Shown in pieces: positions 35,389 to 39,519 of a stretch of DNA of 61,943 nt. Position 1 is the stretch's first letter. Each line of letters begins with the position of its first letter. Under the pieces are notes generated by a model. The model had not been told where the DNA came from. It saw only the letters and a program-made list of their open reading frames with translations, and did no database searches. Source of the stretch: Myxococcota bacterium. GTDB taxonomy: Bacteria > Myxococcota > UBA727 > JAHDBA01. Made by a program: the position numbers and the translations under genes. The stretch spans positions 1 to 61,943 of the forward strand of contig JAHDGS010000004.1 in the NCBI GenBank assembly GCA_020627505.1. The letters run 5' to 3'.

Positions 35389-38300
35389 CTAAGGACGTCG
35401 TCTTCGACGCATCCACGCAAGTGGTATTAGCCCAAGTACAAAGCTGAATGTATTTGATTGGTTACAGTCGGCACAGCCTCCTCCGATGACAAGATAGTTC
35501 TTACCTGCATCACAAACATCTGCGCTGCTATCTGGATCACATGGATCAAGCGGATTGCTTTCACCTGCGTCAAGGACGCCATTCAAATTTGGATCTTCGA
35601 CATTATCATCAAGGCCATCACCATCAGAATCTCTATTCCGTGGGTTTGTACCGCGTTCACGCTCAACACCATTCGAAATACCATCGCCATCACAGTCCGC
35701 ATCATCATCTTCGACGCTACATCCTTCAGGTGGTGGTTCGACTGGATCTTCACACCCTTCAGCATTCGTAAATGGGTCACATGGATCAAGTGGATCAGAT
35801 TCTCCGGCATTCTCGCCAACACCGCTATCAATGACGCCGTTATTATTTAAGTCTTCACCTGACTCACAAACACCATTAACAGTTCCTGACCCATCACAAA
35901 GACCATCGCCATCCGTGTCTGGATTCGTCGGATCTGTTTCGTCCTCGTCGATCACATTATCTCCGTCACGATTCTCGAGCCCGTCAGGCAAACCATCGCC
36001 ATCGCTATCTGGAACAAGTGGATGGGTGCCAATCTCTGCTTCAATGCCATTTGATAAGCCATCACTATCACAGTCTTCTGATAATCTGGATACGTCACAG
36101 ACTTGTGTACATTCTGGGAAGGTACTGATTGGATCACAACGGTCACGTGGGTCACTTTCTAATGGATCGACAACACCATCTCGATCAAGATCTTCACCGC
36201 GTTCACACAGATTTGCAACAAATCGGTCTCCATCACACAGACCATCTCCATCAGTATCTGCGTTCAATGCATCTGTCTCTGTTGCATCAGCCTGGCCATT
36301 TTTGTTGGTATCTTCAATGCCGTCTAAAATACCGTCATTGTCGGTATCAGGATCCGCAGGTTCTGTTCCATAGATTGCTTCCAGTCCATTATTGAGACCA
36401 TCATTATCACAGTCAGCAGTTGCATTATTCAGATCACATATAACCGAACAGTCTTGTGCAGTTGAGACAGGATCGCACGGGTCAAGTGGATCAGATTCTC
36501 CAACATCAACTTGACCGTTCGCATTCTGATCTTCACCGGCATCACACTCAAAATCTACAAAGAGCGGTCCATCGCAAAAACCATCTCCATCAGTATCTGG
36601 TTCTGTGGGGTCTGTTTCATCATCGCCAATCACACCATCGCGATTTGCATCTTCCACTCCGTCTAAAATTCCATCATCATCAGAGTCAGGATCGAGGGGA
36701 TCGGTGTTCAGACTATCTTCGGTACCATTATCGAGGCCATCTCCATCACAGTCCGCACTGTTATTATTGACGTCGCACGTTGACGTGCATGAAGCACCTG
36801 TCGCGATCGGATCACATGGATCGAGGGGATCGGATTCACCAGCCTCAATGACGCCGTCATCATCTAAGTCTTCGCCACCAAAACACACACCGGAGGCAGG
36901 TGCAGCACTACCATCACATAGACCATCACCGTCTGTATCAGGATTTAATGGGTCTGTTTCATCAGTTGATGTCACACCATCACGATTATGGTCTTCAACA
37001 CCATCTAACAAACCATCATCATCTGTGTCTGGATCTTCAGGGTCGGTCCCGAGCATATTTTCAGCCCCGTTTGAGAGTCCATCCAAATCACAATCGGCCA
37101 TCATATCCGCTAGTGAACATGCGGCAGAACACATTGGGTCACTGTCGTCAGGGTCACATGGATTGAGGGGATCGGATTCACCAACTTCAACGACACCATT
37201 ATTATTGGTATCTTCTCCAGACTGACAAATACCAGCCACAGCCAAACTGCCATCACAGTAGCCATCATCATCAGTATCTGGATTGAGTGGGTCCGTCTCA
37301 CCTGGTGTGACCGTTGCATCTCCATCTGTTTCGACACCATCTTGTAGGCCATCATCATCTGAGTCCGGGTCTTGTGGATCTGTACCAAGTGATGCTTCGT
37401 CACCATTATTCAAACCATCATTATCACAATCGAGTGTATTATTGCTGAGGTCACATCCCGCACATGATGAACCATCACCACCGCAGATACCGCATTCATC
37501 AAGGACGGCGTCACCGCCACATATTCCTGCGCAATCAATAACCGCTGTGCCTCCGCAAACATCGGCGCAATCAAGTCTTGCCGATCCACCACAGACACCA
37601 TTGCAGTCTAGTGATGTATTTCCGCCACAGACACCAGCACAATCAAAAATAGCTATCCCTTGACATACGCCTTCGCAGTCAGGTTGAGCTGTGCCACCAC
37701 AAATTCCGGCGCAGTCGAAAGTAGAACGACTTGGATCAGTTGGCGCACAATCATCCCCATTCTGTACACCGTCTTCATCACAGTCGCGTACAGGATTTGA
37801 CACCAAACATTCGCATGTTGTGCCATCACCTTCACAAACACCACATTCATCAATCACAGCCGTGCCATTGCAAACGCCTGCACAATCACGTTGTGCTCCA
37901 CCATTACAAACACCCAAACAATCACGCATCGCAGTGCCTTGACATACGCCATTACAATCTTGCGCTGCATTGCCACCACAAACACCTAAACAATCGAGTG
38001 TCGCACGTGTCGGATCTGACGGCGCGCAATCATCCCCGTTTGGGGTATCATCACCATCACAATCAGCTGTATCGTCTGAAAGTTGACAGCCGCATGTTGA
38101 ACCATCTCCATTACAAACACCACATTCATCAAACTCAGCTGTACCGTTACACTCACCTACGCAATCAACCGTCGCTGATCCATTGCACACACCTAAACAG
38201 TCCGGCATCGCCGTACCGCCACAAATGCCACGACAATCACGTTCGGCACTTCCGCCGCATACACCAAAACAATCTTCACGTGCGGTTCCATTGCACACAC

Positions 38301-39519
38301 CTGCACAGTCTCGACGTGCAGGTCCTTCACAGACACCTGCGCAATCAAATTGCGCCGCACCGCCACAAACGCCTAAGCAATCTTCGAACGCGCGGGTCGG
38401 GTCTTCGGGTGCACAATCTTCTCCATTGTCGACACCATCGTTGTCGCAGTCCGCATCATCATCTGTGAGCTGGCAACCACAGCTTGTCCCATCGCCACCA
38501 CAGACGCCGCACACATCACGATCCCAACGGGTCGGATCTTCAGGTGCACAATCTTCAAGATTGATAACATCGTCGTTATCACAATCAGCCAACGGATTGG
38601 ATAAATCACATCCCACCGGTGGAAGCTCGCAACCAGGTGGCAAAAATGCACTAATAAATGTGAAGCTCACGCCATCAGCACCATCTAAACCACACCGATT
38701 ACCATCACCACCCGCAACCTCTGTCGAACAAAATGTATGACCTGAAGATTGGCCAAATGCCTGTTTGATAACGCCGCCGCCGCCGCCGCCGCCGCCATCA
38801 TCATGTGTCGCACCTACGCCGCCATTTGCGCTCAGTGTACCGGTACATGAAAATGACAAGTCGCCATAAATATAAATACCACCGCCAGCACCGCCGCCAC
38901 CAGCATCGCCACTTCCTGTTTGCGGCACATTATTCGCATCACCACCACCACTAACGATTTTTCCTTGAATATCGATATGACGCGCAGCCAAAATGACAGC
39001 ACCACCACCATCACCACCGAGGTCACTTCCAAGAGGGTGTGTTGGTCCACAACAATCGCCTGAGCCCCCTGAAGATCCCATACTTGCAGGCACATTATCG
39101 GCAGCATTATTATATGTGTCTAATGGTGCTATCGTTGCACCACACATACTGAAATCTTCTGCGTGACCTTCTCCACCGAGCCCACCATGTGAACCACCAC
39201 TGGCACCATTATTTGACGTTTGGCCTGCACCAGGCCCTTGCCCATCTTGACGTTGGACCGCTTCAAAACCTGCCTCTGATGCGTCAATCGTACTACTTGC
39301 ATCAACAAAAATTGTATCTGCCTCGATTTTCAACGTTCCGAAATTACTGCCATCATGATCACGAACAATAATTTTGGCACCATTTGTTAAGCTGACATTA
39401 TCGTATGTATGATGACCAAATAGTGTTGTCGTTTGACCATTTAAAATCAGATCGGCAGCGTATACGCTCTGCCCACTGACAAATAGTGCCATCAGGCACA
39501 GACTTATGACTTTTCTCAT
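35389..39519 (-). CDS. giant secreted cysteine-rich repeat protein with a MYXO-CTERM-like sorting tail
   Basis: AGGAG RBS favours the ATG at 39519 (the track start is 39525). Signal peptide ..SGQSVYA. Gly-rich beta-helix-like region with GGA(V/I) motifs. Four arrays of a 12-aa two-Cys repeat. 5.5 thrombospondin-type-3-like modules (DxDxDGxxDxxD). C-terminal GGGCADC + hydrophobic helix + RRRRRP. Confidence 0.9.
   Translation of the reverse strand: [1376 protein letters not shown]
35506..37455 (-). repeat. coding tandem repeats: five ~113-aa TSP3-type modules plus one shortened module
   Basis: Each module follows C-D-(L/V)-x4-DCDxDGLxNG..GTDPxDPD(T/S)DDDG(L/I)xDGxED...ETDPxxPDTDGDGxCDG....C..GED...Gx[12 protein letters not shown].....C. 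Confidence 0.9.
37456..38610 (-). repeat. coding tandem repeats: 17 copies of D-C-x-G-(V/I)-C-x-G-x-A-x-x in arrays of 7, 4 and 6, plus four D-E-C-G-V-C-x-G-D-G-S/T-x-C caps
   Basis: Read from the translated product, for example [97 protein letters not shown]. Confidence 0.9.
38773..38796 (-). repeat. perfect (GGC)8 trinucleotide tract encoding Gly8
   Basis: It appears as a GCC repeat on the + strand. Coordinates were derived from the residue count (G244..G251 of the track ORF) and may be off by one unit. Confidence 0.75.

Follow-up and report, generated by a model that had tools for sequence, protein, structure and literature searches.

The CB part of ADAMTS, ADAMTS-L and papilin proteins corresponds to the C-terminal 25 positions of the PF19236 (ADAMTS_CR_3) model, and its structure is available from ADAMTS13 (3GHM, 3VN4 and 6QIG) and ADAMTS5 (9RWM). 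CB is a series of turns of about 24 residues, lacks apparent secondary structure, is kept stable by two disulfide bonds, and makes a rod of about 25 Å connecting two globular domains; in ADAMTS13 the exosites are placed in CA and the spacer, CB being a connector (PMC4885070). Another described system is CglD of Myxococcus xanthus, a lipoprotein of the cell surface that has COMP-like, calcium-binding TSP3 repeats and a stalk rich in Cys; the conformation of CglD was disulfide-dependent in DTT titration (bioRxiv 10.1101/2023.10.19.562135).

The window analysed here, a whole stretch of 61,943 nucleotides from a Myxococcota bacterium, contains a gene for a large Cys-rich protein (Table 1). In the database, the gene is called from 39519, with a product of 1376 aa. 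The product of the open reading frame was 100% identical to P0134, which forms a singleton cluster. A reading of the sequence alone had described an array of 12-residue repeats at 37456-38610, and this segment corresponds exactly to residues 306-690 in the translation. The coding strand of the repeat is the minus strand, and the plus-strand translation of the segment is riddled with stops.

The first residues were assigned as a putative signal peptide from the n-h-c pattern by eye. The Gly-rich domain that follows, for which only 8 relatives were found, matched AgmC_N with E 4e-9 and 36 bits against a cut-off of 275, and is the probable functional head borne by the stalk. Pfam found TSP3_bac seven times in the protein, and the CglD-like and AgmC_N-like matches in NCBIfam were both under the cut-off. 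The six TSP3 modules start at residues 691, 803, 917, 1030, 1143 and 1269, and each opens with C-x8-C-D-x-D-G, as do the ladder heads described below. The C-terminal tail resembles a MYXO-CTERM sorting signal, but its scores against the sorting-signal models were sub-threshold (TIGR03901, E 0.18, 12.2 bits, threshold 20; TIGR03382, E 1.1).

Table 1. Features of the gene and of the encoded protein, with positions in the window.
Feature	Position	Strand	Remarks
Whole gene	35389..39525	(-)	1378-aa secreted, probably cell-surface protein; from ORF list and translation
Putative signal peptide, Sec-type	39457..39525	(-)	residues 1-23; read from sequence
N-terminal Gly-rich domain	38611..39456	(-)	residues 24-305; weak AgmC_N match
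Block 1, no 12-mers	38479..38610	(-)	head residues 306-336, cap 337-349
Block 2 head	38383..38475	(-)	residues 351-381; C-x8-C loop, then D-x-D-G-x-x-N-G-E-D, then 12-residue pseudo-unit
Block 2 ladder, 7 exact 12-mers	38131..38382	(-)	residues 382-465; AlphaFold2 pLDDT 96-98
Block 2 cap	38092..38130	(-)	residues 466-478; profile match to ADAMTS CB
Block 3 head	37996..38088	(-)	residues 480-510
Block 3 ladder, 4 exact 12-mers	37852..37995	(-)	residues 511-558
Block 3 cap	37813..37851	(-)	residues 559-571
Block 4 head	37717..37809	(-)	residues 573-603
Block 4 ladder, 6 exact 12-mers	37501..37716	(-)	residues 604-675
Block 4 cap	37462..37500	(-)	residues 676-688
Six TSP3 modules, CglD-like bacterial (calcium-binding type)	35506..37455	(-)	about 113-126 aa each
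C-terminal tail	35392..35505	(-)	hydrophobic helix, then RRRRRP

A mechanical parse divided the region into four blocks (residues 306-349, 351-478, 480-571 and 573-688), each made of a head, 0, 7, 4 or 6 12-mers, and a cap. The grammar proposed in the sequence-only reading was thus recovered, together with its count of 17 units and 4 caps without length variation. The consensus of the 12-mer is D-C-x-G-V/I-C-x-G-x-A-x-x; 16 of the 17 units fit D-C-x-G-[VIE]-C-x-G, and the remaining one has D at position 4 (DCADVCGG). The cap is D-x-C-G-(V/I)-C-x-G-D-G-(S/T)-x-C. When the 385-aa segment was shuffled 5000 times with its composition preserved, units appeared by chance at a mean of 0.07 and a maximum of 2, against 17 observed. 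The head, C-x8-C-D-x-D-(G/D)-x3-4-(D/E)-D-C-A-P-x-D-P-(T/S)-R-x3, had been called TSP3-like. This holds for a start of the form D-x-D-x-D-G-x-x-N-G-x-E, which is common to true TSP3 repeats, but the rest differs, and the TSP3_bac model of Pfam failed on the heads, giving no match to that of block 2.

The number of Cys had been estimated at about 42, whereas 58 were counted, of which the units have 34, the caps 12, the heads 8 and the loop starts 4, the last being an extra Cys ahead of every head that creates a C-x8-C loop. A block with n units therefore has 2n+6 Cys, and local pairing of all of them is possible under the rule described below. At the DNA level, the identity between units was 59% (maximum 72%), synonymous codons were mixed at the invariant D, C and G, and Tandem Repeats Finder detected no period-36 repeat in the array. 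These results indicated that the periodicity is maintained at the protein level and does not come from recent slippage.

The 12-mer had been regarded as a module that could not be placed in any family, and this did not stand. Clustering at 50% identity gave about 1,530 clusters of proteins with the same repeat (1080 matches in an earlier homologue search), in arrays of 2 to 23 units. The taxonomic range, which the sequence-only reading had proposed to survey, covers mainly Neomarinimicrobiota, Myxococcota and Bacteroidota, with some protists and a few viruses; the 12-mer array is widespread in marine microbes. In the homologues, 510 of 714 successive motif spacings were exactly 12, and D1, C2, G4, C6 and G8 were conserved at 97% or more; these five invariant positions were held over about 1,500 clusters of several phyla. 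The arrays are flanked on the N-terminal side by LamG, LTD, CBM96 or M12B protease domains, and on the C-terminal side by a T9SS tail, a dockerin or a TM anchor. Being placed between N-terminal domains and C-terminal anchors, they take the position of a linker or stalk.

A comparison with Pfam, also proposed before, gave a divided answer. The repeat region had no match in our local copies of Pfam and NCBIfam, but PF27846, from a newer Pfam release, was assigned to 16 of the top 120 homologues, and almost every one of these 16 has arrays of at least nine canonical units. When the arrays were masked, the 16 proteins split into 13 mutually unrelated groups. Since they share nothing but the array, it is the sole thing that the accession can model, and by this comparison of sequences PF27846 almost certainly models the 12-mer array. 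The family thus appears to be already catalogued. The window protein, with arrays of up to seven units, may reach the PF27846 threshold or miss it. In a literature search, PF27846 appeared in no paper, and neither a published description nor a solved structure of the 12-mer repeat was found.

Only the cap had been thought to resemble ADAMTS proteins. The likeness of the cap is real, but the 12-mer also aligns to CB. A profile of the last unit plus the cap matched ADAMTS5 (9rwm_A) in the PDB with E 2.6e-8, and ADAMTS13 (3ghm, 3vn4 and 6qig) with E of about 3e-4, end to end over all 25 positions. The block 4 cap and its preceding unit were also aligned to 9rwm_A by phmmer. Some microbial homologues passed the PF19236 gathering threshold via the unit-plus-cap part alone (P0028, 34 bits); Pfam did not find PF19236 in the window protein. 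The proposed Foldseek search of the predicted model against the PDB returned only ADAMTS13 (6qig_A, 23 columns, rmsd 0.6 Å, 43% identity), at a non-significant E of 2.3 because the match was so short. Since CB aligns to one 12-mer plus the cap, the ladder corresponds to the repeated first half of the CB module, and on this alignment the array is a many-times-repeated form of the small ADAMTS rod.

The sequence-only reading had suggested a disulfide-stapled solenoid or stalk and had left the regularity of the fold to structure prediction. Given 51 sequences aligned in register, AlphaFold2 reached pLDDT 96-98 over all 7 units of block 2, although we had set the register of the alignment ourselves, which may inflate the confidence; a single-sequence control gave pLDDT 40. 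The model was strictly periodic without helices, and DSSP assigned bridges only at unit positions 12 and 6, which fits the suggestion. The Cys pattern of homologues pointed in the same direction. For this we took 233 family proteins, which supplied 1,557 non-redundant pairs of adjacent units, and called the first Cys of a unit Ca and the second Cb. Among these pairs, the unit preceding a complete one had Ca without Cb 52 times, and Cb without Ca 3 times; the unit following a complete unit lacked Cb once; and the unit before a cap kept Ca without Cb 281 times. A separate analysis of Cys presence and absence had the same outcome. Only pairing of Ca in unit i with Cb in unit i+1 predicts this pattern of loss, which supports a unit-to-unit ladder. 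In some homologues the Cys priming the first unit sits 5-7 residues upstream, outside the Ca register, thus the ladder start is not uniform. The disulfides of ADAMTS13 CB (UniProt and PDB 3GHM) are C532-C548 and C545-C555.

We propose, with a probability of about 0.6, that the four blocks are rigid, coreless disulfide-laddered stalk or spacer modules in which the ADAMTS CB rod is extended. After Sec export, each 12-residue unit would fold into a tight turn, with beta-bridges at unit positions 12 and 6, and with Gly4 and Gly8 in the turns. Ca of unit i would be bonded to Cb of unit i+1, 16 residues downstream. The ladder would be primed by the Cys of the head pseudo-unit, DCAPxDPxRxxx, and ended by the cap, whose second Cys would bond Ca of the last unit, and whose first Cys would bond the last one of the cap, 10 residues further. 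With the Cys after the previous cap, the remaining Cys of the head would close the C-x8-C loop. Such interleaved, continuous staples would make a thin stiff rod without a hydrophobic core, equivalent to CB (one unit plus cap) lengthened by repeating its first half, and about 1 nm long per unit if the CB geometry repeats. The four rods would lie between the N-terminal Gly-rich domain and the six calcium-binding TSP3 modules, followed by the MYXO-CTERM-like anchor, and the rods and TSP3 modules would hold the N-terminal domain off the cell surface; any rigid repeat would by default be read as a spacer. Against the stalk reading, the invariant Asp at unit position 1 could indicate cation or ligand binding.

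The most probable alternative, itself unlikely, is a tight beta-solenoid in which each turn takes 12 residues, with i/i+12 bridges and about 0.48 nm per unit. This is the fold of the Tenebrio molitor antifreeze protein, in which each 12-residue TCTxSxxCxxAx repeat forms one coil with disulfides in the core. If the array is such a solenoid, the longest ladder, of 7 units, would be compact and measure about 3.5 nm, in contrast to a rod that gains about 1 nm with each unit. The array has the same exact period of 12, two Cys per unit and Ala or another small residue near the unit end, and would, like the insect protein, have disulfides in place of a hydrophobic core. The DSSP bridges at positions 6 and 12 also fit two parallel i/i+12 ladders, and a disulfide that crosses from one coil to the next would agree with the Ca(i)-Cb(i+1) rule. 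However, the insect Cys are at positions 2 and 8 and pair within a coil, instead of 2 and 6 with the proposed inter-unit pairing, and the array has no Thr ice-binding ladder. Neither sequence-profile searches of the PDB nor Foldseek matched the array to an insect antifreeze beta-helix, and ADAMTS13 CB was the sole structural match. CB, a rod of 25 Å for about 24 residues (PMC4885070), is too long for two coils of 4.8 Å.

Slightly less plausible again is a repetitive binding surface, in which the disulfide scaffold would do no more than present the variable positions 3, 7, 9, 11 and 12, the array being an adhesin or lectin that recognises polysaccharide, mineral, ice or prey-cell surfaces. The invariance of Asp1, the co-occurrence of arrays with carbohydrate-binding and LamG domains, and the likeness of the protein to gliding-motility adhesins (CglD-like, 188 bits; AgmC_N-like) agree with it, as do the neighbouring Cys-rich and spacer domains of ADAMTS, which are substrate exosites (PMC4885070). 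In ADAMTS13, however, these exosites belong to CA and the spacer, with CB as a connector (PMC4885070). No conserved pattern of aromatic or charged residues was seen at the variable positions, and both the range of array lengths and the interdomain placement are typical of spacers.

We consider it improbable that the C-x3-C cysteines stay as free thiolates for metal binding (Cu, Zn or Fe) or redox buffering, in a metallothionein- or MopE-like manner. Cys are very dense in the segment (58 in 385 aa), some metal sites show C-x3-C spacing, and PF11617, the MopE-type putative metal-binding motif, occurs in three relatives of the N-terminal domain. However, an exported protein folds in oxidising conditions, the consensus has no His, Met or other ligand residues, and Cb loss is tolerated exactly where the upstream Ca is absent, and this is a rule for pairing, not for chelation; the homologous Cys of ADAMTS CB are all in disulfides (PMC4885070). 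A largely unstructured, low-complexity linker with periodicity left by replication slippage, which the composition biased to G, C, D and A and the poor single-sequence prediction might suggest, was effectively refuted by the divergence of the units in DNA, the conservation of five positions across phyla and the pLDDT reached once the alignment was supplied.

Compared with CglD, the C-terminal half of the window protein matched the CglD model over the TSP3 modules (E 1.5e-55), and both would be Cys-rich surface proteins. However, the score of 188.6 was far under the equivalog cut-off of 400, a VWA or MIDAS domain was not found in the window protein, and the stalk of CglD has been described as EGF-like (bioRxiv 10.1101/2023.10.19.562135), which differs from a 12-mer ladder. 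ADAMTS proteins have exactly one unit, without the second Cys, plus a cap, whereas the bacterial window protein has a unit with both Cys, repeated up to 7 times (up to 23 in homologues), and is without the CA subdomain, TSP1 repeat, spacer and M12B protease. Even so, its last 12-mer and cap align end to end with C-D-G-x4-S-x4 ... (S/T)-C of ADAMTS CB with the same four-Cys spacing (13, 3 and 7 residues), its predicted conformation superposes at 0.6 Å over 23 residues, and CB itself is a rod-shaped, disulfide-stabilised interdomain connector (PMC4885070).

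Translation of the minus-strand ORF 35389..39525 gave a protein of 1378 aa (hereafter the window protein), in which the ladder segment was the exact counterpart of nucleotides 37456-38610. The plus-strand reading of this interval contained stops throughout, and the plus-strand ORFs there were regarded as shadows of the minus-strand gene. A mechanical parse divided the segment into four blocks (see the table). In all blocks, a head of the pattern C-x8-C-D-x-D-(G/D)-...-(D/E)-D-C-A-P-x-D-P-(T/S)-R-x3 was followed by 0, 7, 4 or 6 units of exactly 12 residues, D-C-x-G-(V/I/E)-C-x-G-x-A-x-x, with the glycine at position 4 replaced by aspartate in one unit. 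Each block was closed by a cap, D-x-C-G-(V/I)-C-x-G-D-G-(S/T)-x-C. Against the 17 units observed, composition-preserving shuffles gave a mean of 0.07 and a maximum of 2. The grammar described in the sequence-only reading was thus confirmed, and its count of roughly 42 Cys was corrected to 58 for the ladder region.

Parts of the window protein and their positions
Feature	Residues	Nucleotides	Strand	Basis
Sec-type signal peptide	1-23		(-)	read from sequence
Gly-rich N-terminal domain	24-305	38611-39456	(-)	weak AgmC_N-like match
Four ladder blocks, whole segment	306-690	37456-38610	(-)	parse
Four ladder blocks, individually	306-349, 351-478, 480-571, 573-688		(-)	mechanical parse
Six CglD-like bacterial TSP3 modules	691 to about 1340		(-)	Pfam, NCBIfam
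Tail GGGC...hydrophobic...RRRRRP	about 1341-1378	35392-35505	(-)	MYXO-CTERM-like, below threshold

The ladder segment gave no match in local Pfam-A or NCBIfam. The initial view that the repeat could not be placed in any named family was not upheld, as a large family was found. A phmmer search with the 385-aa segment returned 1080 proteins at E<=1e-3 (best 2e-71), and a profile of seven units, run against 1.84 billion cluster representatives, matched 1,530 clusters at E<=1e-3, of which 461 reached E<=1e-10 and 61 reached E<=1e-30, the largest proteins among these matches having 4,922 aa. PF27846, from a newer Pfam release, was annotated on 16 of the best 120 homologues, and nearly all of these 16 carried at least 9 units. 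When their arrays were masked, the 16 proteins fell into 13 mutually unrelated groups, which means that PF27846 can only be modelling the array. The repeat family appears to be already catalogued under this uncharacterised accession. We found no publication on PF27846 or on the motif DCAGVC, and the literature matches for CGVCGG were irrelevant.

The spacing was exactly 12 in 510 of 714 successive motifs among the best 120 of the 1080 matches, and the unit logo of the family read D(98%)-C(100)-A(50)-G(97)-V(56)-C(100)-G/N-G(99)-x-A(69)-V-x. The window protein had 17 units of this family type (consensus D-C-x-G-x-C-x-G-x-A-x-x) with an exact period of 12, and it was recovered at 8e-75 by the family profile, which contains the window rows. 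Arrays ranged from 2 to 23 units, about one third of them closed by the same cap. In homologues P0003, P0010 and P0008-P0013, some arrays ended in 'DCAGVCYNPxTG(G)xP...' or 'DCSGQCCDPFGQYDGPAC', and these divergent terminators may be alternative ladder caps. The window protein itself formed a singleton cluster. Among the 233 members sampled, a head-ladder-cap grammar with the DCAPxDP pseudo-unit was found in this protein only, and within this sample no other protein combined four such blocks with TSP3-derived heads.

The phmmer relatives came mostly from marine metagenomes (Tara samples and MAGs of Myxococcales, Marinimicrobia and Pseudomonadota), with one MMETSP protist transcript. When GTDB species genomes were scanned with a degenerate DNA pattern of three units, at least 118 stretches were matched. 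Neomarinimicrobiota accounted for the majority of the matches listed, which further included Myxococcota, Bradymonadia, Bdellovibrionales, Halobacteriovorax, Chitinophagales, Saprospiraceae, several proteobacterial classes, Planctomycetaceae and two archaeal MAGs. Matches in Nonomuraea (L100), Oscillospiraceae (L037), Metamycoplasmataceae (L111) and Chthoniobacter (L093) were rejected as low-complexity DCxGDC or CCGSCG tracts and do not count towards the taxonomic range of the family, and two further loci, L027 and L032, were doubtful for the same reason. Real arrays were present in two of the five viral contigs matched by the pattern: L120 (IMGVR_UViG_3300047373_000743, ~4626-5632) had 15 units, and L121 had 3 units plus a cap. 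The other three, the giant-virus contigs L119 and L122 together with L123, were matched only through low-complexity DC[RST]GDC tracts. A match to the model at E 2.8e-4 came from A0A516MDL0, a protein in BFVD. Elsewhere in the family, the arrays were accompanied by LamG, LTD, CBM96 or M12B protease domains on the N-terminal side and by a T9SS tail, dockerin or TM anchor on the C-terminal side.

The cap had been likened to the Cys-rich region of ADAMTS proteins, and this likeness was borne out by profile A2, built from the last unit plus the cap (26 columns, 73 sequences), which matched ADAMTS5 (9rwm_A) at E 2.6e-8 and ADAMTS13 (3ghm, 3vn4, 6qig) at E about 3e-4. The match spanned positions 2-26 of 26 and therefore took in the last 12-mer as well, so the likeness was not restricted to the cap as had been supposed. 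The matched element was CB, the rod subdomain of the ADAMTS cysteine-rich domain, whose motif spacing C-x12-C-x2-C-x6-C (with G-V-C-G-G-D-x-S-x-C) was present in all four caps together with the preceding unit or pseudo-unit. CB has been described as 'a series of turns stabilized by a pair of disulfide bonds'; it forms a rod of ~25 Å that bridges the CA subdomain and the spacer domain, and is strongly conserved across ADAMTS and ADAMTS-L proteins (PMC4885070). PF19236 (ADAMTS_CR_3), whose 115 positions include CA, gave no match on the window protein or the segment even at E<=1, and some microbial homologues exceeded its threshold through profile positions 91-115 alone. The window protein differs from the ADAMTS Cys-rich domain in having neither the CA subdomain nor the ADAMTS context: M12B protease, TSP1 repeat and spacer were not found in it, and Pfam gave TSP3_bac only. 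The array is homologous to the CB element, but the protein falls outside the ADAMTS Cys-rich domain family.

One homologue, P0143 (1274 aa), had an M12B reprolysin-type protease with the zinc motif HEIGHNFGCHH at ~100-320, followed by ladders of many units and caps at ~360-690 and a C-terminal TM helix. It is a fusion of an ADAMTS-like protease and a Cys ladder outside Metazoa, its sequence looks eukaryotic, and it hints at how the M12B protease and the ladder came together.

Disulfide pairing was analyzed through the presence and absence of Cys in 1,557 non-redundant adjacent unit pairs from 233 family proteins, with the window protein left out. Units were defined by D1, G4 and G8 only, blind to the Cys positions. 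With Ca and Cb denoting the first and second Cys of a unit, all of Ca1, Cb1, Ca2 and Cb2 were present in 910 pairs, Cb1 alone was missing in 52, Ca1 alone in 3, and Cb2 alone in 1; from unit to cap, the patterns C C - C and C - - C were found in 300 and 281 pairs, respectively. Thus, a unit with nothing in front tolerated loss of Cb and almost never loss of Ca, and a unit following a complete unit was almost never without Cb. A second tabulation led to the same result. We infer that Ca(i) pairs with Cb(i+1), 16 residues apart, because this was the sole scheme predicting these counts; the alternatives, Cb(i)-Ca(i+1) pairing and pairing of C2 with C6 inside a unit, predicted patterns other than those found. 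The same rule gives C532-C548 and C545-C555 in the CB of ADAMTS13, which is probably also the pairing in UniProt and 3GHM, and these four residue numbers agree with the A2 alignment and with N552.

Every block of the window protein contained 2n+6 Cys, all of which can pair locally under the Ca(i)-Cb(i+1) rule. The loop Cys would bond to the first head Cys, forming a C-x8-C loop, and the DCAP Cys of the head to Cb1. Along the ladder each Ca(i) would bond to Cb(i+1), Ca(n) to the Cb of the cap, and the Ca of the cap to its final Cys. Since such bonds are interleaved and not consecutive, folding of the ladder probably requires a disulfide isomerase.

Structure was predicted for residues 349-481 with AlphaFold2, using the in-register alignment A1 of 51 array windows. 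The mean pLDDT was 85, reaching 96-98 over all seven units, and the head, which lacked alignment depth, scored low. The model had no helices and showed beta-bridges at unit positions 12 and 6 only (model residues 33, 39 ... 117, 123). A regular repeat, as anticipated, was obtained in this way, and the single-sequence prediction was unusable (pLDDT 40). When the model was compared with PDB by Foldseek, ADAMTS13 was the only match (6qig_A; 23 columns, rmsd 0.6 Å, 43% identity), with an E of 2.3 because the match is so short. The pure 12-mer profile A1 gave only noise against PDB sequences, and the PDB searches found a multi-unit ladder in no solved structure.

We favor, with a probability of about 0.6, the reading that the blocks are rigid, coreless, disulfide-laddered rods serving as a stalk or spacer. 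In this reading the protein is anchored to the surface at its C-terminus, and the ladder rods, together with the calcium-binding TSP3 modules, would hold its N-terminal domain outwards. Should the CB geometry (25 Å for a unit plus cap) simply repeat, each unit would add ~1 nm, so that 25 unit-equivalents would span roughly 25-30 nm. For the earlier stalk or solenoid proposal, the stalk was supported as predicted and the model was regular, and we weigh solenoid geometry separately from the rod. A solenoid like TmAFP, with 12 residues per turn and a rise of ~0.48 nm per unit, is in our view unlikely, as neither the PDB profile searches (E<=10, E<=1) nor Foldseek (E<=10) returned a 12-residue beta-helix of the insect antifreeze type. 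That the array acts as a repetitive binding surface is a poorer candidate, and we give very little weight to the Cys being metal or redox thiolates. A disordered product of slippage can be practically dismissed, as the units were only 59% identical in DNA and Tandem Repeats Finder detected no period-36 repeat in the array. These two results rule out recent slippage as the origin of the repeat and, with the mixed synonymous codons at invariant residues, indicate that the periodicity is kept by selection at the protein level.

The Gly-rich N-terminal domain, the likely functional head of the protein, had only 8 detectable relatives (best E 1.5e-17), with PF11617 on three of them. An opening of the form C-x8-C-D-x-D-G-x-x-N-G was common to all ten modules of the protein (35506-38610, minus strand), starting at residues 306, 351, 480, 573, 691, 803, 917, 1030, 1143 and 1269. 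Past this opening, four of the ten ran on as a Cys ladder and the other six as CglD-like TSP3 repeats. Because the ten modules open alike, their comparison suggests that the ladder blocks arose by swapping out the body of a TSP3 module. The description of the heads as TSP3-like holds for the start D-C-D-x-D-G-x-x-N-G-x-(D/E), which is all that heads and TSP3 have in common, but does not extend to the TSP3_bac HMM (PF18884, 22 positions): the four heads scanned alone gave no match at E<=10, and the equivalent start of the first downstream TSP3 module matched at 2.2e-8. The CglD equivalog NF033765 scored 188.6 bits, below its full-length cut-off of 400, with matches confined to the TSP3 modules. 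The tail, with GGGC, a hydrophobic stretch and RRRRRP, resembles the MYXO-CTERM (GC_trans_RRR) signal, whose hallmarks are a Gly-Cys motif, a TM helix and clustered Arg at the very C-terminus; the tail scored below both HMM cut-offs, with 12.2 for TIGR03901 (cut-off 20) and 10.0 for TIGR03382 (cut-off 15.85).

In the public gene call for the window protein (P0134), translation begins two codons after the first ATG of the ORF, at the second Met (MRKV...), which gives 1376 aa (39519-39525, minus strand). The adjoining genes were housekeeping genes: SelO, an RseP-type M50 protease, glutamate dehydrogenase and a TlyA-like methyltransferase. A DUF4388 match at 46933-48105 was weak (21.9 bits, cut-off 25). 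Homologues of RseP (41198-42904) from named organisms were almost all from Myxococcota or 'Deltaproteobacteria', the best being only 48% identical, and the GC content of the window (~45%) was far below that of classical myxobacteria. The source lineage seems to be deep, poorly sampled and Myxococcota-like, the host itself being probably an uncultured, divergent bacterium, and the 1378-aa protein would be a long stalked surface protein of that lineage.

The repeat was already known in the sense that it is abundant in databases, probably with a Pfam accession. What is new here is its interpretation (homology, topology and role), not its existence, and we found neither a publication that describes it nor a solved structure, nor any function that has been tested. 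If the ladder model holds, the array is a simple, length-tunable rigid rod of 12-residue units stabilised by disulfides alone, which would be of interest to protein designers and would explain the spacing of surface enzymes and adhesins in many marine bacteria. Tentatively, the ladder may also represent a distinct, undescribed and unsolved fold class, a coreless rod of any length held by interleaved disulfides only. If so, the conserved CB of metazoan ADAMTS, ADAMTS-L and papilin would have come from an older microbial module, of which it retains two units.

The CB connector of ADAMTS and ADAMTS-L proteins, in which the disease variant ADAMTS13 p.C532F lies, gains an evolutionary context as the smallest version of a repeat that is common among Neomarinimicrobiota, Myxococcota, Bacteroidota and protists. 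The repeat described here is the ADAMTS CB rod, whose structure is known, in multiplied form, and it belongs to a large family. Because the A2 profile aligns with CB sequences, the ADAMTS CB corresponds to the cap and a single 12-mer that lacks its second Cys; the first half of this module is what the microbial ladder repeats.
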